Of a stretch of 64,000 nucleotides of DNA, positions 30,702-55,137 are shown in pieces. The stretch's first letter is position 1, and the number at the start of each line of letters is the position of its first letter. A program made the translations under genes and the position numbers. Source of the DNA: an uncultured Planctomycetaceae bacterium (GTDB lineage Bacteria; Planctomycetota; Planctomycetia; Planctomycetales; Planctomycetaceae); the NCBI GenBank assembly GCA_963813715.1, contig CAWFAK010000005.1, positions 96,001-160,000 of the forward strand, given 5' to 3'. Under the pieces are notes generated by a model. The model was not told the origin of the DNA. It ran no database searches and was given only the letters and a program-made list of their open reading frames with translations.

Positions 30702-30733
30702 ATTGTTGAAAAATAATTGATGTTTTCAACAAT
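30702..30733. promoter_or_regulatory. Perfect inverted repeat ATTGTTGAAAA-N10-TTTTCAACAAT; likely autoregulatory operator
   Basis: AT-rich 11-bp arms ending 18 bp upstream of the GTG start of the HTH regulator. Confidence 0.7.
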
Positions 30734-30751
30734 GGCCGTTATCTTGGAAGC

Positions 30752-31348
30752 GTGAAACCCAAACCGGCAAAGGCAGACTGTCTCAGCGAACGGCGACGGC
30801 TGGCCGCGATCGCTTCGCCGTCGCGGATGGAGATCATCGGTGCGCTGCGGATGCACGGTCCGCGGTCGATCCGCGAGTTGGCCGCCCAGTTGGACCGGCC
30901 GGCCGACGGGCTCTATCACCACGTGCGGACGCTGCTCAAGGCGGGCATCCTGGTCGAGCGCGGACAGCGCAAGGTCGGCCGGCGGACCGAGGCCGTCTAC
31001 GAACTGACGGCCGAACGCATCGCCGGCCGCCTGGATCCCAAATCGGCCCAGAGCAAGGCGGCCGCCGTTCGTGCCGGCTCGGCCGCGCTGCGACTGGCGC
31101 ACCGCGAGTTCCGCACGGCGATCGAGACCGATGCGATGACCCTCACGCGAGGGCTGCCCAACATCCGTGCCTCGCGGCAGAAAGTCTGGCTCACGGACAA
31201 GGGCCTCGTCGAATTGCATCGTTTGCTCGGACAGGTCGAGCAGTTGCTCACTGCGGACAGCAACGTGAAGCGCGGCCGTCCCCATGCACTCACGATTGTT
31301 CTGGCTCCCTGCGTGAAACGAAGGGTATTTCGCCATGGTGCTCGCTAA
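30752..31348 (+). CDS. ArsR-like winged-HTH regulator with C-terminal extension
   Basis: IASPSRMEII, SIRELAAQL, LYHHVRTLLKAGIL and RTEAVY. Confidence 0.82.
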   Translation: MKPKPAKADCLSERRRLAAIASPSRMEIIGALRMHGPRSIRELAAQLDRPADGLYHHVRTLLKAGILVERGQRKVGRRTEAVYELTAERIAGRLDPKSAQSKAAAVRAGSAALRLAHREFRTAIETDAMTLTRGLPNIRASRQKVWLTDKGLVELHRLLGQVEQLLTADSNVKRGRPHALTIVLAPCVKRRVFRHGAR

Positions 31349-32924
31349 TTCGCTGACGTCGACCACGCCGCTCTCGGCCCTCGGTCTGGTCTGTGTCACG
31401 GTCGCCTCGGTGCTGATGCAGACGACGGGCTCGTCCGCGGCCGAACGAGACGACACGCCCGCGATTCTGGCCCGGATTCGCCATGCGATCGGCTCCCCGG
31501 CGCTTGCCGCCTTCCCGCACGGCGTGCTCATCGAAGGCGTGGCCCAGTATCAGGGTCTGTCGGGGCCGTACACGCTGCTGAGCGATTCGCGGGGAAGATT
31601 CGTGCAGACGATTCGCCTGGCGCGGGACCAGATCGTCGGGTTCGACGGCACGACGGCCTGGGGCGTCGATTGGTCTGGCACCCCCCGCGTGCTCGAGCTG
31701 GCCGATCTCGAGACGGTGCAAACGGAAATGTGGATCCGCACGGGCCGCTGGCTGGCCGAAGACGGCCCCTTCCACATCTCCGTCCGAGAGGACGCGGGCA
31801 AGGCGTCGCCACTGCGACTGCACCTGAAGCTCAAGCAGGGCCTGCGCGAGCTGGACCTCGACGTCGATCGATCGACCTGGTTGCCCACCCGAATGACGGC
31901 GCGGCGCCTCGGAACGGAGGAGACCTGGGACTTCGGCTATCGCGTCCACTTAGGCATGACACTGCCGCAGCACACGATCCACCACCTGGGCGGCGCGGCC
32001 GATACCTACGAAATCCACGACGTGCGTCCAGCGCCGGCAACGACGGACGATCCGTTTAAACCCAGACTCGAGCCCCCGCGCGATACCGAGTTTCGTGCGG
32101 CCGGCACGGAGCGATTCGAAGTGAAACAAGCGACCGGCGGGCACCTGTTCGTGCGGCCCAAAATCAATGGCGTCGACGTCGGCTGGTTCGCCCTCGACAC
32201 GGGAACCGGCGCAGGCATGACGATTTCGCCCACGCTCGCCCAGCGGCTAGCCATGCCCGCGTTTGGCCAGGTGGTGCAGGGGGGCGCGGGGAAACTTGGC
32301 TTGGGTCAGCTCTATCAAGGTCAAACGTTCGAGTTGGGCTCGATCACGATCCACAACAGCGTCTACGTCGAGTTGCCGCAGGCCTTTTGCGACGCGATGA
32401 AAAAACTGTTCGGCTTGGAACTCGTCGGCACGTGCGGCTACGACCTGTTCAGCCGAGCGGTCGTCGAGCTCGATCTGAAGCAGTTGACGGCGTCCTGCCA
32501 CGAGCCGACCAGTTACACGCTCGAGAGCGGCCATTGGCAGGAGTTGCGGCTCAATCGCAAAATCTCCTGCGTCCAAGCCGCGTTCGAAGGTGGGCACGAC
32601 GCCTTGTTCCAATTCGATACCGGGGCCGGCTCGAACATCGTCTTTCACGCGCCGGCCGTAGCACAGCTCAAGCTGCTCGAGCATCGCCGGACGAGGCCCA
32701 TCAAAGTCGGCGGCGTGGGCGGCACGCTCGACGCGCAGCTCGGCCAGCTCGAATGGTTTCAAGTCGGCCAGCAACGGCTCGAGAAATTGAACGCCGTCTT
32801 CCTGTCCCCGCACGAGGGTGCGCTCGACGACCCGTACGTTGCCGGCACGTTCGGCGCGGGGATCCTCAAAGGGATGAAGATCGTCTTCGACTATCCGCAC
32901 CGCCGGATCGCGTTCCGAAAATGA
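31335..32924 (+). CDS. Secreted protein with two retropepsin-like aspartyl protease domains
   Basis: N-terminal hydrophobic segment; GHLFVRPKING...FALDTG...GTCGYDLF and a second FQFDTG...GTFGAGIL...VFDY. Confidence 0.8.
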   Translation: MVLANSLTSTTPLSALGLVCVTVASVLMQTTGSSAAERDDTPAILARIRHAIGSPALAAFPHGVLIEGVAQYQGLSGPYTLLSDSRGRFVQTIRLARDQIVGFDGTTAWGVDWSGTPRVLELADLETVQTEMWIRTGRWLAEDGPFHISVREDAGKASPLRLHLKLKQGLRELDLDVDRSTWLPTRMTARRLGTEETWDFGYRVHLGMTLPQHTIHHLGGAADTYEIHDVRPAPATTDDPFKPRLEPPRDTEFRAAGTERFEVKQATGGHLFVRPKINGVDVGWFALDTGTGAGMTISPTLAQRLAMPAFGQVVQGGAGKLGLGQLYQGQTFELGSITIHNSVYVELPQAFCDAMKKLFGLELVGTCGYDLFSRAVVELDLKQLTASCHEPTSYTLESGHWQELRLNRKISCVQAAFEGGHDALFQFDTGAGSNIVFHAPAVAQLKLLEHRRTRPIKVGGVGGTLDAQLGQLEWFQVGQQRLEKLNAVFLSPHEGALDDPYVAGTFGAGILKGMKIVFDYPHRRIAFRK

Positions 32925-40670: not shown

Positions 40671-43600
40671 TTACTGCCGCTCGCGGTCGGGCGATTGCTT
40701 CACTTTGGCAGCGCCGGAGCGATGGCCCGAGTCGCGCGACTTTTTGCTCGAGCTTGCGGTGCCCGAACCCGCCGTGCCCGATCCTGCCGCCGGGCGCGTG
40801 GCCGGCCGTTCGATCCAGAATCGCTTCCGCTCGAACGGATACGTGGGCAGCACCATGCGGCGGCAACCCGCATCGGCGTAAACGCTCTCCCAATCGACAT
40901 GCAATCCGGCCTGATACAGCTCGGCGAGGGATTGAACGAACGCGAGACGCTCATCGGTCCCCGAGCCCAAGCTTGCCAGCCAGCAGCCCGCCGACTGGAA
41001 TCGCGAATCGTCGCGGAACAATCGCCGCGTCAGCTCGAGCAACGTGCCCCCGGGACCCACCTCGAGGAAGCAATCGCAGGCTTCGGCCAGCGTGCGGGCG
41101 CCTTCGGCAAAGCGGACCGGCTCGAGCAGCTGTCGACACCAATAGTCGGCCGTCGCAATTTCCGCCCCGGCGGGCCGCCCGGTTAGGTTAGACAAGAGCA
41201 GCGTTTGTGGCGGCGAAAGCGAAATCGATTCGACGACCTTGCGGAACTCAATGAAAGCCGGGTCGTCGGCCGACAGGTTGGACCGGCCGGCCAGCGGCAA
41301 TTTGCACGCGGCGATTCGCCGAGAGGTGAGTTCGCGAGCAAAGCGGCAGAGCGCCTCGGCCTCGCCCGCGACCACGACCTGATCGGGACCGTTGATCGCG
41401 GCGAGCGAGATGCCCGGCACGATCGGCAGCAATTCGCGAATCCTGGCTTCGTCCGCGCGAACAGCCAGCAGACCCTCGCGTCGTGTCGTCTCACGTTCGA
41501 GCTTCGCGCGGGCGGCGACCAGACACAGCCCGTCTTCGAGACTGAAGACGCCCGCCACCGCGGCCGCCGCGTACTCGCCCGCGCCGTGGCCGATCAGGGC
41601 CGCCGGTGCGACGCCCCACTCTCGCCACATCTGGGCCAACGCGTATTCGATCGCGAAGAGCAGGGGCTCGGCACTTTCGGGCCGGCTCGCCAGCGGAGCC
41701 GTCTCCTCGAAGAGGGGAGCCAGCAGCGGTTGCGGCAGATCGTTGGCCAACAACTCGGCACAACGATCGAGCGTTTGGCGGAAGCGCGGCTCTGTTTCAT
41801 ACAGCCGGCGGGCCCGTTCGAGCGACTGCGTGCCGACGCCGGGAAACAGAAAGCCGACGCGCGTGCGCGACACGTGCTTCGCCCCGTTCTCGCTGCCGTT
41901 CTTGGCCGCCGAGAGCGCGGCCACGAGTGCGTTGCGGAGCTCGGCCACACTCGAACCGACCGCCGCGAACCGCTCGCCAAAGTGTGCTCGGCCAACGGCC
42001 GCCGTAAAACAAATATCCGCGAGCGAGGAATCGTCCGCGTGTTCAAGCGCATCGCGATAGCGGCCGATCAAGGCCCGCAGCGCCGTGTGACTTCGTGCCG
42101 AGATCGGCAGCACGTGCGGCGTCCCGCCCGGCCGTTGTTGGGTCTTTAGCGACGGAGCCTCTTCGAGGATCACATGCGCGTTCGTGCCGCCGATGCCCAG
42201 CGAATTGACGCCGGCCCGCAACGGCTCTTCGCCGCGCCGCCAGTCCGCCAGATGCTTGTTGACGAAGAACGGGCTGTTGGCAAAGTCGATCCGCGGATTG
42301 GGCGTGTTGAAATGCAGCGTGGGTGGGATCTGCCGATGATAAATCGCCAAGGCCGCCTTGATGAAACCGGCGACGCCCGACGCGATCTGCAAGTGGCCCA
42401 CGTTGGTCTTCACCGAGCCGACCGCACAAAATTCCTTCTCGCCCGTGTGCTCGCGAAACGCCTGCGTGATGGCGCCCAGTTCGATGGGATCGCCCAGCAC
42501 GGTGCCGGTGCCATGCGCTTCGACGAAGCCGATCGTGCGGGGATCGACGCCCGAGCGGGCCAGCGCGTCGCCGACGACGTTCGCCATGCCTTCCTGGCTG
42601 GGGGCCAGATAGCCAACCTTGCCCGAGCCGTCGTTGTTCATCGCCGAACCCTTGATGACCGCAAAAATGTGGTCACCGTCGGCGATCGCTTCGTCGAGCC
42701 GTTTGAGCAGCACCATGCCGGCCCCGTTTCCGAAGACGGTCCCTTGGGCCCGCGCATCGAAAGCGCGGCAATGGCCGTCGGGCGAAACAATCATGTCGTC
42801 GAGGTAGAGGTAGCCGGCTTCCTGCGGCACCTTGATCGACACGCCGCCCGCGAGCGCCATGTCGCACTCACCGTAGCGGACGGACTGCGCCGCCATGTGG
42901 ATGGCAACCAGGGTCGTCGAGCAGGCGGTCTGCACGTTGATGCTGGGGCCGCGGAGGTTGAGCTTGTAGGAGATGCGGGTCGGCAGGTAGTCCTTGTCGT
43001 TGGCCACCATCACCTTGAACCCGCCCATCGAGTCGAGCGTGAAGATCTCCGACGGATCCTGCGGCGACTGGAAGGCCTGCGCGGGGCACAGATTGTTGAC
43101 CAGGTAGGTGTTCATCACCGCGCCGGCATAGACGCCGACCGAGCCGGCATACGCGTGCGGGTTGTAGCCGGCGACCTCGAACGTCTCCCACGCACACTCC
43201 AACATCACCCGCTGTTGCGGGTCCATGAGCGCGGCGTCGCGGGCGCTGAATACTGAAGAACTTCGCGTCGAACCACTCGATGTCGGGCAGGACAGGCGCA
43301 ACCTTCACGTAGTCGGGATTGGCCAGCAGGCTGGGATCGACGCCGGCGGCCAACGCTTCTTCGTCGGAGAAGAACTGCATCGACTCGACGCCGTCGCACA
43401 GGTTCTGCCAGAACTGCTGGAAGTTGCCCGCGCCGGGAAGCGGCAGGCCATGCCGATCACGGCGACGTCGCCCGCAGGGGCGACATTCGTGCGTGCGGCC
43501 TTGCGCCGACGGGCCGCAGTCCGTTCATCCGCCGGCGACCCCGCGTTGGACTTCGCCTGCCGGCTGAGGTAACCCGAGAGCGACTCGATCGTCGGATAGT

Positions 43601-45833
43601 TGAACATCTCGACCAGCGAGATCTGCGGGCCGAAGCGGTCTTGCAGCTTCACGTGCATCCGCGTCAACAGCAGCGAGTCGCCGCCCAGGTCGAACAAGTT
43701 GTCGCGGACGTCGATCTGCTCGAGGGACAGCGCCTCTTTCCAGATCTCGGCGAGCTGCTTTTCGATTTCGTTCTGCGGCAGTTGCGGCTGGGCATGTGCG
43801 GCACGAGCGTCGTCGGGCTGCCGCTGCAGGCGACCGACGGCGGCCAGCACGGCGGCAAACTCGCCGGCGGCGAACCGGCGTGCCAGTTCCATGCGTTGAA
43901 TCTTGCCGATCGCCGTCTTGGGGATCGCCTCTTTCGCGACAGGGAGCAAGAAATCGGGTCGCACGCCGGTCTGGCGGACGAGTCGTTGCTGGATCTCACG
44001 CAACAGCTCGCTCAGCGGCGTTTCTTCATCGGTCGCCGTGTGGAAGAAGACGGCCAATTCCTCGCGGTCGCTGCCGGGGCGACGCACCGCGCAAGCCGCG
44101 GTGAATGAAGGTTCGACGCCGGGCACGCCGCCGACCGTCTCTTCCAACTCGCTGCAGGCGTAATTGACGCCGCGAACGATGATGCTTTCCTTCGCCCGCC
44201 CCGTGATCACCAGTTCGCCGTCGGCCAGAAGTCCCAGGTCGCCGGTTTCAAACCAGCCGTCCGCGTGAAAGACGCGGTTGGCTTCCGGGTTGTGAAAATA
44301 GCCCGGCGTGACGGCCGTGCCGCAAACCTGCAAATGGCCGATCGTCGCTTCCGGAACGACCTGCTGCTCGTCGTCGACGATCCGCAGGCCGACGCCGGGA
44401 ATCGGCGGCCCCAGGCTGGCGAAGGTGCCGGCGCTCTCGACTTCTGACTTGGACGAACCCGCGGAGGGCGCCGGCGCGCCGGACCGCTGCACCGAGAGAA
44501 ACTTCAGCGGCCGATCGTGCCGCACGACTTGATACGTAATGCCCGAGCCTGTTTCCGCCATGCCGAACGCCGGCCGAATCGCGGTCGCGGGAAGTCCATA
44601 AGGCGCGAGCTCTTTCAAGAAGGGCTCGGTCACGGTTTGCGAAACCGATTCGCCGGCCGTCAACATTCCGTCGACGCACGACAGGTCCCACGTCGGCGCG
44701 GGCGAGTTACCCGGCCGCGCGGTGAGTGAGCTCGTCACGAGCGAATACGCAAAGTTGGGCGCCCAGGTGTGGGTGACCCGATATTTGTCGATCAGGTCGA
44801 GCCAGTGCAGCGGCCGGGCGATCACACTTTCCTTTTCGGCATACACCATCCGACAGCCAAGCAGCACGCAGCGGAGGTGCCAGTCCGAAATGCTGCCAAT
44901 GTGATCGAAGGGCAACCAGTTGAGGACGACGTCCTCAGCCGTGTGACCGCACAACAGATTCGCGCCGTGGGCACGCTGAATGATGTTGGCGTGCGTCAGC
45001 ATGATGCACTTGGGTACACCCGTGCTGCCGGACGTGAGGCTGAAGAACGCCGTGTCTTCGGGGCGAGCTGCAAACGTATCGTTCGCGGGAGCCGACGTGA
45101 GCAGGCTCGCAATGTCCGTCGTGCGGACCGATTCGACATCGAGCCTTCCGGCCAATGAGCGGACCGGTTCGAGCAAGTTGCTCTTCGTGATCAAGAGCGG
45201 ACCATCAAGCAGTCGCCAGACCTTGCAAAGCTGCTCGAGGCCTCGGTTTTCTCCGGTGAACGTGGGAGGAATTTGCGCGATGGCCGGTCGAATTCCACCG
45301 AGCAGACAACCCCAGAACGCGGGCAGTACATCGGCACTGCGATCGAGCAACAAGAGTGCGCTGTCACCCGGCTTGAGTCCCAACTTTGCGAGACCACCGC
45401 AGACGGCCGAGGCTTCGCCGAGCAGGTCCCCGAAGTTTTGCCATTTTTCGCTCCCATCCGCGCGGACATGCACGAGGCTCTGGGCCGAGTCGTTTTGCGC
45501 CGTGCGCCGCAGTGCATCGGGCAGCGTTTGCGGGAATTCCGCGAGACCTGGCAGAGCGACCGCCGGGCAGTGCGCAAGAGCGGGAGAGGGGGCAGGAGCA
45601 TCGCTCATTGCCGCGTCCGGCGTTGTAGACAGTGAGGTCACAATCCGCACGTCAACTTGCTCGGCCAGATTGGCTGCACGTTCATTCAGCAGGCCACGCA
45701 GATCGTCCACCGACCGATCGGCTTCGACGACGCAGCGGACCGTCCAGCGCCCGTCCGATCCGGGGAGCACTTCAAATGCGCGGATCCACGCAGCTGAGGC
45801 GAACAGAGAGAGCAATGTCGCCGATGGATCCAT
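40671..45833 (-). CDS. Hybrid adenylation-carrier-KS-AT synthase (McyG/TubE-like A domain, T, KS, degenerate AT); frameshifts near 43435 and 43250
   Basis: A domain: LTSGSTGVPK, NWLPFDH, TWAPNFA, AFGMAET, FETGDLG, PKTAIGK. T: FDLGGDSL. KS: VAVIGMACRFP, MDPQQR, QTACST, EAHGTGT, KTNVGH. AT: GHGAGE, FLEVGPG. Linker LPTYPFER. Confidence 0.9.
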
Positions 45834-46401
45834 AAGCCCGCAATCTCGCGCGACGATTCCGTGCCGGGCAAACTGGTTCGACGCCGAACCCCTGGTCCCA
45901 AGAGTGGCGCAACAAACCATTTCCGCGAGGCATTTTTGATGCCGCGGTTGCCCAGACAGTGAATCGCTTCGTGTTGTTGGAGTTGATGGCCTGACGGTCA
46001 GCCCGGATTCTTAAAGGTCGCGTCATCCGGGACAACGGCTGACTGCGCGTGCAGTCGATGCGGGCTCTGCGACGGGCCTGTTCGACCGCGAACGCCGGTC
46101 AGCGCTCCCAGCTTCGCTCACCTTCGACTGCGGTCCAAAAGTCAGTAGAGAGCCACTGTTATGTTGCGCAAGGCAAAAGTCAAGAACTGAGGCCTAAAAC
46201 CCCCAGATCAAACTTGGACCGTCGCCCGCCGGATCGACGAATCGTTGTGATCGTTTAAGAGTCGCGCCTGACCCAGCAGCTCGTTTGGCCGCGGTGCGGG
46301 CGCCAAAATTAAATGCGGTTTAGAGAACCCAAAGTCTCGCGCGTCTTCGGCAGGGCCGTCGCGACGAATTGAGATCTCCGCGGCCGCTGGCTCGGCAACA
46401 G

Positions 46402-49400
46402 TCAGGTCGCGGGACCCTTGGGGCCGTAGCCTTTGCGCCGTTTGCCTTCGGCCTGCCGTTGTGCGTCGGCGAGGGCGGCGGCCCGATCGGCGAACGCTTT
46501 CGTCACGCCCTGGCCGCGCGAGCCGATGCGACCGAAGCGCACCGTTTGCTCCGACCCGTTCACGGAGATTTCCCAGAACTTCGAGGAGCCGCCCCCCACG
46601 AATTCGAGATATTCTGTCCAGCGGTCGGTGGACTCCTCTGCCGGAGCCGCGGGCGGCTGCGGATGTGCTGTCGGGTCCAACCTCGGGGGGCGGATCGGGA
46701 GGCGGATTGTGGGTCGGACCAGGCAGCGGATCAGGCGGCACGAGTTCGCCCTCGTCGACCGGCTCGTCCAACTCTTCACCCGCCAGCAGTCGTTCGATTC
46801 GCGCCACCACACCGGCCCGATCTTGATACCAGTCGCGGGCCAGCACGACGTAAGTTCGCCAGCCGAACGCGGTGAGTAAGTCGGGCTTGAGCAGCTCGCG
46901 TTCGATCAAGTCCCGCTGGGCGTACCAGTCCGCCGTGTCGACCAGAATGCCCAGCCGATACCCGCGGTCGCCGGCTCGCGAAACGGCCAGGTCGCAGCGG
47001 AAGTGCGATTGGCCGACCGACCGATCGACGCGGTACCCACGTTCTTCTAGTGCGCTGGCCAGCTGGCCAACAACGGCGTCGTCGGTCGGCTCGCGCGCGT
47101 CGGTCGCCGTCCGCGCCTGCGAAAGCGTGGCCAGCAGCTGCGAGGCGATCTCGACGTCACCGATCGAGGCCGCTTCAGCATATCGCAAATAGTTCTTGAG
47201 GCAGTTGGCCCCTTCGTTGTAGTCGTTGGTGATGTCGGAGAAGCGGATCGAGCTGACCAGCGCCATCTGGCAGCGGGCCCGCGAAAAGGCGACGTTGAGC
47301 CGCTTGTGACCGCCCGACACGTTGATCGGGCCGAAGTTCATGCGCATCTTGCCGTCGCGGGTCGGGCCGTAGCAGACGCTGAGGATGATGATGTCCCGCT
47401 CGTCCCCCTGGATGTTCTCCAAGTTTTTGACGAGCAGGCCGACGAATTGCTCGTCTTCCTCCCGTTCCGTTTCCAGTTCCAGCCGGCGGGCGAACTCCGG
47501 ATCCTCGTCGGCCAGGCTGGCCAGTGCCGACTCGATCTCCGCTTGCTGGGCCTCCGAGAACGCGATGATGCCGATGCTGCGGCCTTCCTCGCGCTCCAGA
47601 ATCCGCCGCACGAGCCCGGCGATATAGGCGGCCTCCTCCGCGTTGCGGCGGTTTTCGTAAACGCCGTGCTCCAGGAAGTGGAAGCTCACGGCGCGCTCGA
47701 GTAGCTCGTCCGCGTTCTGGGTCGCGTCGTCCGGCGACTCGACGCGGAGCTCGCGGGCGCCGCGCGTCGAAAGCCGCGCGTCGGGGACGGTCAACAGGCG
47801 GCCGTCGTAGAAGGCATGGTTCGAGAAGCTGATCAACGATTCCGACTGGCTGCGGTAGTGCCAGGCCAGCATGCACGCGGGCAAGTTGCGGGCCGCCTGG
47901 TTGAGGAAGCTGTTGCTGTCGACATCGTAGGTCACCAGCTCGCCGTTCTCCTCGAACGTCAGCTCGTCCCCTTCGTCCGGGCGCTGGCTCACGAAGAAGT
48001 TCGTGGGAGGGAGCTGCATCTCGTCGCCGACGACGATCGCCTGCCGCGCGCGAAAGATCGACGGCACGGCCTCCTCCAGCGTGATCTGGCTCGCTTCGTC
48101 GAAGATCACCACGTCGAAGGTGTCGGCATTGAGCGGCAGCGTGTCGGACACGCTGAGCGGACTCATCAGCCAGACGGGCTTCAAATCGCGGATGACGGCC
48201 CCCGAGTCGCCCGACATCAGGTCGCGGATCGACTTGTAGCGCATGGTCTTGGCGAATTCGTGTTCCAGCTCGCGCCGGCCGCGGTTGTACGTCGGTTTGA
48301 ATGCCTTTTGTGGCACGCTGAGCTGCGCGGCTGGACTGGCGAACGTGTTGACGTGCTCGAGAAACGTCTGGCGAATGATCTCGCGGACGCGCTGGGCATT
48401 TTGTTTCTGCCAGTCGTCGCCCAGACGGCGGAGCCGCGCGAGCTGTCGGCGGCGCGCCGTTCCATCGAAGCGGCCGACGGCCCGGTCGCGCCAGGCGAGC
48501 TGCAGGCTGCGTTCGGCCGTCGCCGCCTCCAGCGCCGGCAGGCTGAGCGGAAAGCTGCGGATCGACTCGGCCAGTTTCGGCGGGAGCGCGCTCAGTTGCG
48601 TCAGGCAATGCAGGTAATCGGGCAGCTCGTCGAGCGAGTCTTCCATCTCGGTGAAAGCGTGTTCCAGCTCGGGCAGGCTCGCGTGCCGATACGCGTCGAG
48701 GAATTCGTCGCAATTGGCCACCAACCGACCCAACTCGTCGGAGAGCGCGGCCACGCCGAGAACCTGCGCGTCGCCACCGGGCGACGTCGTGACGTGCCGG
48801 TGCAGCGAGCGGACGGTCTCGGGCAAGCGATCGATTGTCTGCTCGAGCGACGACAGCTCGGCGGCCAGCTGGTCGAATTCCCCCTCCAAGCCGAAGGCGT
48901 GACAAGTCGCCCGGGCCAGTTCGTCGCGGCGGGCGACGGCCTGATGCTCTTCGCGCAGCTGGTCGAGGATGCGGACCCAGGAAGGGCGGACTTTGTGCTG
49001 CGAGAAGTCGTAGGCCCGATGGAGCACGCCGCGGAGCCGCCACCAGGCCGGCTGGAGGAAGGCAAACATCCGCCCGTCGAATTGGCGGGCTTGGGCGAGG
49101 GCCGTCTCGACGTCGTCGGGCGACAGTTTTTCCCGCCAGGCCTGCGTCGCCTCCCGCTTCTTGGCGATCTCCTGGTCGCCCTGTCGAATCTTTTTTGTCT
49201 CGGCTTGCCAGCGCTGGGCTGCCTCGCTCGAGGGATTCAGAATCGACATCGCCTGCGCGGGCGAGAAAGGCTGCCTGCCGCGCGTAGGCGACGGCCTGGC
49301 ACAAGTTGCCCCAGATCATCGAACGAGCCGCCCGGCAGCGCGAGCCGCTCCAGGTCGGCCTGCAATCGGCGGAGCTCGGCGCCGCTCTGTGTCAGGCAGC

Positions 49401-52034
49401 GGCTGACCAAGTCCAACGGACGCTCGGCTTCGACAACCTTGCCGCTCAAGAGGTGCAGCGGATGATGAGCCAGGATGCCGTCGGCCTGCACGTCGCCGAC
49501 GGTTTCGCCCAGCTCGGTCAGTTGCCCGCGGTGGCGGTGCCAGTCGGCGTAAAACGGGATTCGCTCCCACTCCAGCGGCGACAGGTCGGGCGCCTGGTCG
49601 GCCAGGCGGATTCGCCGATCGAGCGTCGCCCGCAGCGGCCACGCAGCACGTGTCGGGAGCGCTTCGCATGGCGGCATCGAACTGCTCGAGCGGCTGCAGC
49701 TCCTTCTCGAACTGGCCGACGAGACGCCCGCGGCGCGCCGCCGCCTCGTCGCGCTTTTTGTCGGCGGCGGCCAGGTGCGACTCGTACGTCGCCTTGAGAT
49801 CCATCACGAACTCTTTCTTGTCGGCCTGCGAGTCGTGAATCAGGCAGCAGAGTTCGTGCAGGCCGCGCTGCTTGAGCCGATGATAGACGACGTCGATCGC
49901 CGCCCGCTTCTCGCACACAAAGAGCACGCGTTTGCCGCGGACGACGAAGTCCGCAATCAGATTCGTGATCGTCTGCGATTTCCCGGTTCCCGGCGGCCCC
50001 TGGATGATGTAGCTCGCGCCGCTGCGAGCCAGGGCGATGGCGTGGGTCTGCGTCGGGTCGCAGGAGACAACGTGAAACCGCTCGGCCAGCGGCAGCGTTT
50101 CCGTCGTGGCCGGCCGCACCTCGCGCGGCGCGATGGCGAACGTCGCCTCGAACGCCGGATTCACCGACGTGTCGTCCGCCAACTCGCCGTAATCGCGAAC
50201 CAGCGACATGCGACGATATCGCAAGTTCGACAGTGTCACGGAGCAGAGATCGAACTCCCAGTTGTACGGGTTGTCGTCCGCCTGCTTGCGGACCTGGTAG
50301 AACTTGCGCTCGGCTTCGGCGACGGGCGGTCCGTCTGAGGCGGCCGCCGCTGGCTGGCTCTTCCGCGGCTGGGTCTTCCGCACGTCGACCGGCGGCGGAT
50401 CGGTTGTCTGCCCGTCCTGCGGCTCCGCCTCGTCCTTTAACTCGACCATATATTGAGGCGGCGGCGGACCCGTCGACACGATCTGCTCGAGACGCGTTTT
50501 GGCGGGGCGGACAAACTCTTTGAAGATCCGCACGCCCAGCGGATGGTAGTTCGACGAGTCGTAGCTGTAGTCGAGGTCCAGAAACGAGCGGATGCCGCGG
50601 CCGGACAGCCGGGCGTGCCGGCGAAACTGGTCGAGCCGCCGCCGGGCCTTCTCGTGGATCAAATCAATCCGCGGCCGGTCGACCTTCGTCAGCGTCACCG
50701 ACGGATCGCCCGCCTGAATCTGCGCGTTGAGGTCGGCGTGAAACGCGGCGATGCCCTCGGGCGTGGGGTCGATCGAAACGGGCAGATCGATGTCGTACCA
50801 CTGCTTGAAGAGGTGCCGCACCACCGGGTTCACTTCGGCCTGCGTTTCAAGAGCGGTGAGCAAGTAGCGATCGTGAATCCCCTTTTTCACCGCGAGCCTC
50901 ACCGGCAGCATCAACAGCGGCGACTCGTAGCGGCCGGGGGGCTTGTCCTTGAGATTGGCCCACCGCAGGAAACAAATCACCAACCGCAATTGGGCGAAGC
51001 CGTATTCGCGCTCGTCGCGGGCGGCCTCGGCCCGGATGCGGTCGAGCGTGCCCGGCAGGTACACGGCCTCGCGAAAGTTCAGATACTTGTTGAGCGAGAC
51101 GGCCTGGCCGCTGAGGACATCGCGGCAGAAGCGACCGTTCCAGGTGACCAGCTGATCCTCGCGGACATTGCGGTAGTCGAACATCAGCGGGATCGAGGCG
51201 TGCGTCAGGTTGACCGACTGCATCGTCGACTGGAACTCGAGCAGCCGATTGCGGCGCGAGACCTCGAACAGCCGCTCCCGCAACTTGTCGAGAATGATCC
51301 GTCGCTTGGCGGGCGGCGCCGCGCCGCCAAAACCGCGATTGCTGGCGAGATCCGTCTCAAAGTCGACTTCCTGATCGCGATAGTTCTCGAGCGCGTGCAG
51401 CACGCTCCGCAGATCCTGCGGCCGCTGGTGGCGATCGAGTTCGGTCATCGCCCGGATGACCTTCGCCAGCACGGGATGCAGTCCGGGCGTCAATTCGAAC
51501 AGGTTGCCGCGACGAGCGACGAACCGCTCGGTGGTCCGTCGGGATCGGTGAGGTCCAGGCTGCAGGCCAGGCTGGCCAGAATCAGCCCCAAGCTGAAGAC
51601 GTCGGTGAGCGGGTCGTGATGCCCCAGCCGATGTTCCCAGCAGACGTAGCCACGGAGATAGGCGGGTCGCTCGAGTTCGGCGCCGGGCTCGCCGGCCGCC
51701 TTCGATTGGACTTCGTCGACCCCCGTGTCGAGCTGGCGGACGACGGTCGCCCGGTTGACGACCTCGACCCCCTTGGCCTCCGGCTTGAGCAGGCGGCGGA
51801 CGCGCGACAGCTTGCTCTGAGGCGGACAGCGATCCTGCTCAGCCGAAGCCGATCCGCCCGCCATCGACCTGGAGCGCGCTCAGCCCCTCGAGCGGCGCAC
51901 ATCCCAGCCTCGTGCGCAGCGATCACCTGACGTACAAGCGGCAGAAACGCCGCCAGCGCGTCTTCGGTTGTGAAGCCGCCGTGTTCGATGCGCTCGTGGA
52001 GAAATTCGTGAAACGACGTCAGTCGGCTGGACAT
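46402..52034 (-). CDS. Large multidomain SF1 (Upf1/DNA2-like) helicase: kinase-like C-lobe, DUF4011, helicase, Vsr/REase-like and WGR domains; about 7 frameshifts
   Basis: TDVFSLGLIL; LFEVSRRNRLLEF, FLRW, SPLLMLPVRL, EVNP; GPPGTGKSQT, DEASQ, GDEMQLPP, HYRS, ENIQGDERD, RLNVAFSRAR; VGQSHFRCDLAV, LGILVD; SSKFWEI, FGRIGSRGQ, KRRKGY. Confidence 0.85.
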
Positions 52035-53271
52035 CGTCCGGATGTCGTTCGGCCTCGGCCACGATCGTGGCGGCGTTTTTGCGAACGGCTTCAAATTGTC
52101 GTTTGGTCATTCGCAGTTCCTTCCCCGCGATGGCGACCAGGCGATCCTCAATTTCGAGCCGGCGCGCCAGCAAGAGGGCGGCGGCGAACGGGGCCTCTTC
52201 CAGGTCGGCATCCGACGTGGCGAAATCCAGCAGCACGTAGCAGAAGTAATCCCGCAGCGGCTCGTCGCCGGCGGCGATGGCCTGCGTCAGCTCGTCGAGA
52301 TTTCCGTCGCGGCATTCGGTCGCATCGAAGTCTTCAAAAAACTGTTTGGCGTGGGCCAGGATCGTGTCTGTCTGGATCCAGGCGGGCGCGAGAAAGTGCT
52401 CGAGCAGCGCCCGCGTCGACTGGGCGACTCGCTTTTGCCGCAACAGGTCGAGCGTGCCGATGGCCAGCGGCCCTTCGATGAGCGTTTCCAGCGCCGCATC
52501 GACGCTCTTGGGATCGAGCGACCAGAGCTGCAGAGCCCGCGCGCGAATGAACATTTCCGGATGCGTGACGCCTTCGCTCTTGGTCGCCCCGCGCCGCAGC
52601 ACCTCTTCGGCCTGCTTGAGGTAGGCGTCGGCACTCGCCTGCCGCAGGCCAGTTTCCATTTTCACCTGCATCGACACGCAGGCCGCCAGATCGCCGGTCA
52701 TCGCCAGCGTCAGGCGGTCGCAGAACAGCTCGGTGTAGAGCTTGAAGTGCTTCCACGTCCGCTCGTGCGCGGCCGATGCGGCCCGGTCGCCCAGCATGGC
52801 CGCCAACACCTGTTCGACGATCAGATACGCGCCGTCCTCGATCGAGAACAACCAATGGTGCGCGATCTCGTGCCCGAACAGCGCGATCAACTCCGCTTCG
52901 GTCAGCGTCTCCTGCACGGGGCCGTGCAGCACGACGTGCACTTCGCCCGGCAGCCACGCCAGCGACGCATTGAGCCCCTTGGCGTTTTGCGCCTGGTAGA
53001 GCGTGATGGACGTATCGTGGCCGAGGCGGTCGGCCGCCGCCTTCGCCGCCCGGTACAAGTCAGCCGAGGTGGCCGGCTCGAGCCGATAGGTCGACTTGAG
53101 CAGTTCGTGTCGCACGGCCTCGGCGTACTCGGTCCGCACTTTCTGCGAGGCGATCCAATTCCAGATTTCCTGCTCGTCCGTGCGAAGAAATTCGAGCAAC
53201 TCGCGGTGATAGCGCGTCGGTTCGACGACCGGGCGACCCGCGTCTACCGAGGTCGTGAGGGAGGTCGACAT
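52020..53271 (-). CDS. M48-like zinc metallopeptidase; 3' end uncertain, overlaps the helicase start
   Basis: LYQAQ...LNA, LTEAELIALFGHEIAH (HExxH), downstream ELFCDR and THP motif. Confidence 0.8.
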
Positions 53272-53465
53272 CGTGATCCGCACGAGTTGAGAGGGATTGC
53301 GACCAGGCACGCGCGAGCGATCGAAACAGCCGGCGCAAGAGCGCCTGCATCGCCCCGTCATCTTGTCCGACGATATTGCCCCAGAATGACGGGATTCGGC
53401 GGAAAACGCCAGTTCTTGTGCGCAGGCGTGCGGCGAACGATCAGCCGCCGCCCAATCGCGATGCT

Positions 53466-55137
53466 TCAGTGCCCGGTCGCCGCTTCCGACTCCGGCGTCG
53501 GCGGGCGTCGCCCCACCCACCAGCCAAAACTCACAAACACTGCGGCGAACAACAGGTATCCGACGGCGATGCCGAACGTGTGGGCCGCGAATGCTCCTGG
53601 CGCCGGCTCGGCGAAGATGAAGAGGAAGTCGACCACGTTCCCCTTCAACTGGTAGGCGTGTGTCAGCCCCAGCGCGGCAAAGGCGGCAGCGATCAGCGAC
53701 CAGAGTGCGGCCGCGTAGAACTTGCGATCGATGAGGAAGGCGGCAATCGCGGCCAGGATCATGCAGGTGAAGATGTAGCCCCGCTCCATCACCAACAGGC
53801 CGTGCAGCAAAAAGCCGTTCACGTCAAAGTTGTGATTGGCGGTGAGCGCGGCTTGCATCGTCAGTGTGGCGCCCGCCAGCCCCACCATAATAAACGCCCC
53901 TTGCACGACGGTCAGACCCCACGCGGCGATCGCCGGAAACAGGCCCACGGCCACGGCCGGTGCGTGGTCGCGCGGCGTCGTTTGAAACGCCTGGGCCGTG
54001 ATGATCACGCCGATCCAGAGCACGATCGGCATCCCCGCCTCGATGGGGATCACGCTGCGAATCAGGCTCACGGTTCCGGTGAGGCAGATCAGCGTGATCA
54101 CCAGCCCGTTCAAGGTCGAGTAGCCGGCCCGCGCGCCGAGCGCCTTCCAGCCGGGATGCCCGATATAAATCGTCGTGGGAAAGCAGCTGCCAAACAGCGA
54201 CGCCGCGATCGTGGCGATACCGTTCACCGAGAGCGAAGCGGCCGTGGGAAAGCGATCGCCCGCCGCCTCGGCCGACTCGATGTTCTGCAGGCTGCCCAAC
54301 ACGTTGAACAGGCCCATCGGAATGATCACCGACAAAAATCCCAACCACTCGTGCGGGTTGTTGGCGATCTCTTTGAGGAAGTTCCACAGCGGCACGCCGG
54401 CGAAGTGCGGATAGTGCAGACCCGCGCTCGGCCCAGGCGGAGCTGACGGCGCTCGCGCTCATCGCCGGTCCGGCCAGCGACTCCGGCAGCACGCGGGGCA
54501 GCAGCCAGGCGCAGAGCGTGCCGCTGGCAATGGCGACCAGCCCGCCCGGCAGCCCCAGCGGAAAACCGACCCGCGAAAAATACGTGATCAGGATCAGCGC
54601 CAGCGGAAGCATGCCGACGAGCGGCCGCTGAAAGATTTCCAGCGTGAACTTCATCGCGATAAAGCCGATGGCGATGCCCGCCAACGTCGAGAGCAGGGCG
54701 GCCCGCGGCGTGCGGCGACGGATCGGCTCCGCGACGAACGCACCGAAGAACTCGATCAGGCCGCTCCCCAGGCAGGCCACCATTCCCGCCAGCCACGCCG
54801 TCTCCCCGCTGTTGGTCCGTTCAAAGACGGGCTTCATCACGAAGTAGATGTAGATCAACAGCGACGGCGTGTTGATGCCGAAGGGGAGCGCGGTGACATC
54901 GCTGCGGCCGGTGGCCCGGGCGACGAAATGGGCCTGCACGGCGTAGTAGACGTTGCCGATCAGAATGCTGATCGCCGCTCCCGGCAGGATGTACGAGAGC
55001 ATCAGCGACGAACCGCCGCCGATGCCGCAGTCTGCGCACAGTTGCACGATCAGCAGCAACTGCACGAGGTTGTCGACAAACAGGCCGAAAAACCCGTCGA
55101 GATCCCGTTTGACAAAGACCGGGTAGCGTGCCGGCAT
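53466..55137 (-). CDS. NCS2/AzgA-like nucleobase permease; frameshift near 54420
   Basis: [47 protein letters not shown] and many TM segments. Confidence 0.85.

Follow-up and report, generated by a model that had tools for sequence, protein, structure and literature searches.

In a window of 64,000 nucleotides (nt) from an uncultured Planctomycetaceae bacterium (contig CAWFAK010000005.1, positions 96,001 to 160,000; coordinates below are those of the window unless another locus is named), a gene for an M48-type zinc metallopeptidase is followed on the minus strand by a gene for a large helicase-nuclease protein (Table 1). A first-pass annotation, made from the letters of the window, had described an HExxH-encoding gene abutting or overlapping the start of a gene of about 1,870 amino acids (aa). 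This layout stands, as the open reading frame (ORF) of the peptidase runs from 53271 to 52036 and the ATG of the large gene, at 52034, falls within the last codons of the peptidase frame. The superfamily 1 (SF1) helicase motifs, the DUF4011 block, the Vsr/restriction-endonuclease-like segment and the WGR domain which had been read from the same letters are likewise recovered, as Pfam matches and as legible motifs in the window ORFs.

The association of the two genes extends far beyond the window. A pattern scan of one genome per species in 185,579 species gave 269 matches, of which 244 were confirmed as peptidase relatives; the 80 best of these 244 loci were retrieved. In 73 of the 80 loci the large gene immediately follows the peptidase gene, downstream of it and with both genes on one strand, and the carriers belong, according to record titles, to at least seven phyla (Planctomycetota, Myxococcota, Bacteroidota, Verrucomicrobiota, Lentisphaerota, Armatimonadota and Gammaproteobacteria). 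Four of the seven exceptions have less than 900 nt of DNA downstream of the peptidase gene. In the other three (L023, L027 and L045) the large gene is present on another contig of the same genome (3/3), with no peptidase gene within 1.5 kb upstream of it. Among the loci whose large gene gave one unbroken match (64), its start codon overlaps the stop codon of the peptidase gene by 4 nt (ATGA, GTGA or TTGA) in 34 and by 1 nt in four others (38/64 together). The conservation of the gene pair, which the first-pass annotation had proposed to check, is borne out by both counts, and the peptidase and the large gene evidently form a real, conserved and translationally coupled two-gene cassette. Among 193 flank ORFs extracted from 32 loci no recurring third gene was found, the largest cluster spanning three loci. 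A search for fusions of the peptidase with the large protein gave two candidates, one from a long-read contig and the other a frameshift read-through; this search reaches only 2,060 aa and would have missed a full fusion, which would measure about 2,200 aa. A predicted complex of the peptidase with the N-terminal domain of the large protein (score 0.00, mark 0.32) is informative in neither direction.

Table 1. Coordinates of the two genes and of the domains encoded by the large gene
Feature	Position	Strand	Basis
M48-type zinc metallopeptidase gene	52036..53271	-	412 aa by homology; ORF, one unbroken tblastn piece to the orthologue P0002
Large helicase-nuclease gene	46402..52034	-	about 1,875 codons across seven assembly frame breaks
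Protein-kinase C-lobe-only domain (pseudokinase remnant)	51340..52034	-	coordinates approximate, mapped from an orthologue
DUF4011	50819..51274	-	Pfam PF13195, 42.7 bits (cut-off 22.2), 7.6e-11; residues 74-225 of ORF 49316-51493
SF1 helicase 1A, N-terminal part with Walker A GPPGTGKS	49829..50059	-	Pfam AAA_11, profile positions 3-93
Insertion of about 500 aa within helicase 1A, poorly conserved	48131..49828	-	AAA_11 split in two stretches; a feature shared with Prometheus/Hhe-type proteins
Helicase 1A, C-terminal part, and domain 2A	47249..48130	-	Pfam AAA_11, profile positions 210-253, and AAA_12
MTES_1575 (Vsr/DUF559-like) restriction-endonuclease-fold domain	46790..47062	-	PF18741, 64.8 bits (cut-off 38.2), 7.8e-18
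WGR, C-terminal, after a low-complexity linker	46414..46614	-	PF05406, 56.6 bits (cut-off 22), 2.9e-15

Reading frames in the window assembly

When the intact orthologue P0001 was aligned to the window with tblastn, the large gene was recovered as six collinear pieces in three frames. The first-pass annotation had counted about seven frameshifts, correctly: in a comparison with G002, a relative of 92% identity, indels that break the frame are placed near 51898 (-2), 51844 (+1), 51538 and 51531 (+1 each), 49645 (+1), 49301 (+1), 49258 (-2) and 46658 (+1). In addition, the TAG which ends the peptidase gene in G002 reads CAG in the window assembly, and the peptidase frame therefore extends to 51880. 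Between 52020 and 52036 on the minus strand two extra bases upset the context of the start codon of the large gene; these bases are absent from the contigs of three public runs. A further difference, at 52314-52324, is an in-frame change in length of 18 nt in the peptidase gene relative to G002 and to one public-run contig, at a point where the protein is conserved least.

The frame breaks are errors of assembly and not signs of decay. The window genome comprises 18 contigs with a marker completeness of only 82.6%, and other genes of the window are also broken (a ketosynthase domain is cut at 43305, citrate synthase is fragmentary and the permease gene, a single frame in relatives, is split). 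Relatives assembled in few contigs (long-read) show frame changes elsewhere in the large gene, with one in G002, one in G005 and seven in G004, whereas in relatives assembled in hundreds of contigs (short-read; G006 and G036) the gene is a single open frame of 1,908 and 1,843 aa, respectively. Moreover, the frame-restoring form is what four independent public soil runs show in their contigs; being 92-99% alike, these contigs derive from related strains and not necessarily from the window strain. Restored sites are listed explicitly at 51894 (GC inserted), 51843, 51529-51539 and 49645, and at 52022 and 52024 the start-codon context of G002 is restored, while for the contigs spanning 49258-49301 and 46658 it is the counts of gap letters, rather than individually listed positions, that match frame restoration. 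The concern of the first-pass annotation that the stops might be real is answered by these contigs, which lack the indels, and by the intact short-read orthologues. Substitutions relative to G002 are concentrated on one codon position, with 285 of 373 in the large gene (counted per frame segment) and 56 of 80 in the peptidase gene, which shows purifying selection on both genes. A scan of 45900-53700 for promoters and terminators gave no signal above that of shuffled sequences.

The peptidase and the large protein

The peptidase carries its HExxH motif as HEIAH at residues 134-138. The window protein passes the Pfam Peptidase_M48 threshold marginally (20.4 bits, cut-off 20.3), and the orthologue P0004 and the 5'-cut P0002 score 26.0 and 18.1 bits, respectively. 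Across 18 diverse peptidase sequences the residues H134, E135, H138, E181, D185, H237, P238, E239 and R243 are invariant in all 18, as is an acidic C-terminal motif (YxCYVLLDF..D.DLEE). E181 is, from what is known of M48 enzymes, presumably the third zinc ligand. With its invariant HExxH, E181 and HPE motif the peptidase is predicted to be catalytically intact. The AlphaFold2 (AF2) model, with a predicted local distance difference test (pLDDT) score of 90.4, places residues 27-256 in the M48 fold, with matches to 3c37 (Z 9.8), ZMPSTE24 (9.4), BepA (9.3) and Ste24p (9.3) over 165-190 aligned residues; BlaR1 is matched at Z 9.7, and the top Foldseek match is BepA (E 2.9e-3). Residues 276-400 form a separate helical domain for which structural matches are weak. 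The peptidase thus shares with BepA, HtpX and Ste24/ZMPSTE24 the HExxH motif, the downstream Glu, the HPE..R motif and the catalytic fold, and with BepA also the presence of a helical C-terminal domain. It differs from these M48 enzymes in being soluble and in having a C-terminal helical domain of its own, of 130 aa, with the invariant acidic motif. Its sequence, together with a model free of membrane helices, suggests a soluble and cytoplasmic protein. A search of 5.8 billion proteins, in which 8,000 candidates were scored, gave 683 relatives at E <= 1e-5, and all 120 among the matches listed are about 400-520 aa long. The Myxococcota copies are about 50% identical to those of planctomycetes and the Bacteroidota copies about 35%. 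No PADLOC model matches the peptidase, and among NCBIfam models only HtpX and SprT are matched, far under their cut-offs.

In intact orthologues the large protein begins with about 250 aa of N-terminal domain, followed by DUF4011 (261-412), Walker A (649-658), the insertion of about 500 aa, DEASQ (1282-1286) and the other helicase motifs, MTES_1575 (1639-1729), a low-complexity linker and WGR (1819-1886). The motifs GPPGTGKS, DEASQ, VGDEMQLPP, WHYRS, QGDERD and RLNVAFSR are legible in the window ORFs. Among 34 full-length proteins from several phyla, in which 241 of 1,897 positions are invariant, the helicase motifs (including Walker A, DEASQ, VGDxxQxPP, WHYRS, QGDERD and RLNVxFSR) are invariant in 34/34, and column identity within the insertion is 0.21-0.38 over residues 751-1200. 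In the nuclease domain D1669 is invariant in the same proteins, with E1681 kept in 31 and K1703 in 29 of the 34. MTES_1575 is found in all 53 complete homologues, WGR in 26 of them. The idea of added terminal domains, put forward in the first-pass annotation, thus holds for the N-terminus, where the kinase C-lobe is constant, but not for WGR, which is an optional appendix. By sequence, what is constantly added relative to the single-gene relatives is the kinase C-lobe at the N-terminus, along with the peptidase.

The N-terminus had been described in advance as kinase-like, which is correct for one half of the kinase fold. An AF2 model of this domain (pLDDT 84) matches residues 97-278 of PknB with Z 15.2 and a root-mean-square deviation of 2.9 Å over 155 residues, and all 50 Foldseek matches listed are kinases or pseudokinases. 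Only the C-lobe is represented, from helix E to helix I, as the large protein begins at the position of PknB residue 97 and the N-lobe is absent. Where HRDLKxxN and DFG would lie, the consensus of 34 sequences reads VAPLEGL and RIWFxEA, a placement made by reading of the alignment; A-P-L stands in place of HRD and (I)WF in place of DFG, and the catalytic Lys and Asn are also replaced in 34/34. An APE-like motif (WEH) and a DxFSLG motif are retained. The domain thus resembles PknB and other eukaryotic-like Ser/Thr kinases in its C-lobe fold and differs from them in lacking the N-lobe, HRD and DFG. As the N-lobe and the catalytic motifs are absent, the domain is expected to be incapable of the usual ATP binding and phosphate transfer. 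A profile of the domain recovers 493 clusters at 50% identity, 221 of them at E <= 1e-30; in the 150 clusters listed it is N-terminal, in proteins no longer than 1,942 aa, and it is seen solely in this large-protein family. Shorter entries with this domain are probably cut gene calls. All 73 large genes adjacent to a peptidase gene match from query residue 6 or earlier, and the half-kinase region is therefore present beside the peptidase.

Distribution and genomic neighbourhood

Of 150 genomes with a completeness of 90% or more in the order to which the window belongs, 6 carry the peptidase, in 4 of 51 genera, and it is found in 3 of 151 genomes of a Bacteroidota family, the seed genome counted. 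Only G002 is syntenic with the window throughout. Congeners with the pair (G004, G005 and G006) have in common with the window only 46416-53284, and congeners without it (G003, G007 and G009) only the neighbouring permease gene, to about 53500. A simple empty site was not found in the pair-less congeners, the flanks of the window being 1.35 Mb apart in G003 and on separate contigs in G011. The cassette would thus seem to be autonomous and to move horizontally, occupying different genomic sites in congeners.

In Ralstonia megaplasmids the two genes are annotated as 'M48 family metalloprotease' and 'WGR domain-containing protein'. On one megaplasmid of Ralstonia solanacearum (L109 13161-24723) the pair is followed by a 1,945-aa 'UvrA' paralogue, a neighbour not kept in the other loci examined. 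In Candidatus Laterigemmans baculatus a retron-type reverse transcriptase (L046 3526-4539, plus strand; PADLOC RT_VI, 2.4e-53) is located 3.5 kb upstream of the pair.

Within the window, a gene for a hybrid polyketide synthase (PKS) with fatty acyl-AMP ligase (FAAL), acyl carrier protein, ketosynthase and acyltransferase domains extends over 40671-46010 (minus strand) as two ORFs. Because the split falls inside the ketosynthase domain, with the profile beginning at position 78, another assembly frameshift is likely. The permease gene (53466-55137, minus strand) occupies two overlapping frames in the window and one frame of 563-572 aa in four congeners, and has no Pfam match at E <= 0.001. Further away, a protein of 535 aa (31317-32924, plus strand) includes a retropepsin-like aspartyl protease domain and is encoded next to an ArsR-type helix-turn-helix regulator (30710-31348, plus strand).

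Relatives among known systems and possible function

The first-pass annotation had called the locus Hhe-like. This is right in so far as the large protein belongs to the DUF4011/SF1/Vsr-like group that includes Hhe, but the nearest family is Prometheus/ProA (NF058533, PDC-S37): among PADLOC defence models PDC-S37 scores highest (684-714 bits), followed by Hhe (306-310 bits), and with NCBIfam two intact orthologues score 694.9 and 688.5 bits for ProA and 448.6 and 456 bits for Hhe. According to PMC13700489, ProA has been validated by experiment as a defence of Pseudomonas aeruginosa that consists of one protein, and its DUF4011, its helicase, its nuclease, which has a characteristic insertion, and its DUF3320 are all essential. 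The large protein shares with it DUF4011, an SF1 helicase with a long 1A insertion and MTES_1575, all above Pfam gathering scores. The match is limited to profile positions of about 580-1770; beyond these the large protein differs in its added N-terminal kinase C-lobe and in a C-terminus that consists of WGR or of nothing. A further difference is that ProA acts as a single protein, whereas in the family of the window an M48 gene precedes the large gene in 73 of 80 loci and, in three more, lies at another place in the genome. The primary paper on Prometheus is that of van den Berg et al. (Cell Host Microbe 2024). Hhe (NF042953, PDLC02194) has the same overall plan, and its helicase C-terminal half and nuclease align with those of the large protein; unlike the cassette, it consists of one gene and has neither peptidase nor pseudokinase nor WGR.

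A true ProA gene is present in G009 (L101 8444-13240, minus strand), where it encodes 1,598 aa with DUF4011, helicase, MTES_1575 and DUF3320, scores 1523.8 bits with the ProA model and has no peptidase gene upstream. As this protein matches PDC-S37 end to end (1,869 bits), PDC-S37 represents the Prometheus family, and as G009 is a pair-less congener, both kinds of DUF4011 helicase-nuclease occur in one genus. A kinase nature of the N-terminus of the ProA profile was considered and rejected, since a G000 protein matching positions 108-321 has only a transglutaminase-like Pfam match. A precedent is found in the RRDM defence island of Escherichia coli, where an M48 peptidase gene beside type I restriction genes adjoins a helicase-nuclease gene, hsdR (PMC12255303); the likeness to the cassette is in the position next to a helicase-nuclease. 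The first-pass annotation knew of no described system with this combination, in agreement with the catalogues and texts consulted: no PADLOC or NCBIfam model covers the pair, and literature searches with DUF4011, PDC-S37 and ProA among the topics gave no description of it. The pair may accordingly be seen as a two-component variant of the Prometheus/Hhe kind which is absent from the defence catalogues queried.

The interpretation that we favour, and which we consider evenly balanced between right and wrong, is that of a protease-gated, Prometheus-like helicase-nuclease cassette acting against invading DNA such as phages and plasmids. The SF1 helicase would translocate on nucleic acid and carry with it the Vsr-like MTES_1575 nuclease, the two together being the effector on foreign, or damaged, nucleic acid as in the single-gene relatives. 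The half-kinase would be the part of the large protein that docks a protein partner or acts as a latch, and the protease may gate the effector via this pseudokinase, either by a cleavage that switches it on or by restraining it until a trigger arrives. An activity against invaders seems likely by analogy, because the single-gene relatives Prometheus and Hhe act in this way. In favour of this interpretation are also the tight linkage of the two genes, the cassette-like behaviour and rarity of the pair, the intact catalytic motifs of both enzymes, the restriction of the half-kinase to this family and the M48 gene beside hsdR in E. coli. The defence role, the contact between protease and pseudokinase and the direction of control are each plausible. 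A more specific version is offered tentatively and is on the doubtful side: a widespread two-component immune system in which the catalytically stripped kinase C-lobe acts as bait or latch, and in which the M48 protease, by reading or cutting this latch, licenses the Prometheus-like helicase-nuclease. Such a system would defend by degrading nucleic acid under proteolytic control and would put the half-kinase fold to a new use.

Several observations weigh against a role in defence of this kind. The large protein reaches less than half of the curated cut-off of 1500 bits for ProA and is far under the 2000 bits set for Hhe, to which its match is the weaker of the two, and DUF3320 (PF11784, E <= 0.1) is found in neither P0001 nor P0003; with both cut-offs missed and DUF3320 absent, the large protein is a relative of Prometheus rather than a member. 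The enrichment near defence genes that the first-pass annotation had proposed to look for did not materialize, as only 5 of 128 flank ORFs in 22 loci (a part of the 193 extracted) match PADLOC at E <= 1e-10. Four of these matches are generic (a Ser/Thr kinase, SNF2, DEDDh and UvrD) and the fifth, the retron-type reverse transcriptase of L046, is the sole specific defence neighbour. In the window itself the neighbours are metabolic, including the FAAL-PKS gene, and there is also a permease. No relative of the peptidase was found in 50,697 phage records or in IMG/VR, and its carriage on plasmids is confined to Ralstonia megaplasmids (14). Finally, the peptidases are 44-50% identical across phyla, a slow divergence for an immune gene.

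Some of these observations are also expected of a module for DNA repair or genome maintenance, whose helicase-nuclease would act on R-loops or damaged DNA, with WGR as a sensor of breaks and the protease clearing proteins trapped on DNA in the manner of SprT/Spartan. The absence of a defence-island context in 22 loci and the high conservation of the peptidase across phyla are in line with such a role, as are the Vsr-like nuclease, the WGR of the window and of 26 of 53 homologues, the weak SprT-like Pfam matches of the peptidase (E 0.006-0.034, under the cut-off) and the UvrA paralogue beside the Ralstonia pair. Furthermore, relatives of Prometheus are described as akin to eukaryotic enzymes acting on R-loops (PMC13700489). 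However, the pair is rare and patchy (6/150 and 3/151 genomes), its location differs between congeners, its flanks show no recurrent repair gene, WGR is dispensable in half of the family, and the peptidase has the M48 fold and matches SPRTN (6mdw) at Z 4.5 only. We consider a repair module unlikely.

The cassette could also be a selfish addiction pair resembling toxin-antitoxin systems, in which a toxic helicase-nuclease is neutralised by the co-translated protease and which persists by post-segregational killing, with or without a benefit in defence. The gene order from neutraliser to effector, the start/stop overlap, which implies coupled and stoichiometric synthesis, and the autonomy, rarity and variable sites of the cassette would fit this explanation. 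The retention of both genes when unlinked (3/3) is unexpected if co-translation is strictly needed, and plasmid or phage carriage is lacking besides the Ralstonia megaplasmids, which makes addiction quite improbable. Decay of the large gene into a pseudogene, with the module dead in the window genome, would account for the seven frame changes and the missing peptidase stop codon of the assembly. It is contradicted by the frame-restoring form in four independent soil runs, by the codon-position bias of the substitutions in both genes, by the breaks at other places in long-read relatives and their absence in short-read ones, and by the broken neighbouring genes, and is very improbable. That the peptidase and the large gene are merely unrelated neighbours is hardly credible at all, given their adjacency in 73 of 80 loci across phyla, the overlap in 38 of 64 and the presence of both genes in all three genomes where they are unlinked.

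Many comparable candidate defence systems exist. The present family is large, with its 244 confirmed relatives and 493 clusters, and the parts that it adds, a protease and a dead half-kinase, resemble an unusual control device placed on a type of protein with validated anti-phage activity. Were it to serve DNA repair, the pair would be a possible bacterial helicase-protease machine directed at damaged DNA. If the favoured gating by the protease is correct, the cassette would provide a handle on how infection is sensed across the DUF4011 helicase-nuclease group, and bacterial immunity would have in it a case of proteolytic licensing.

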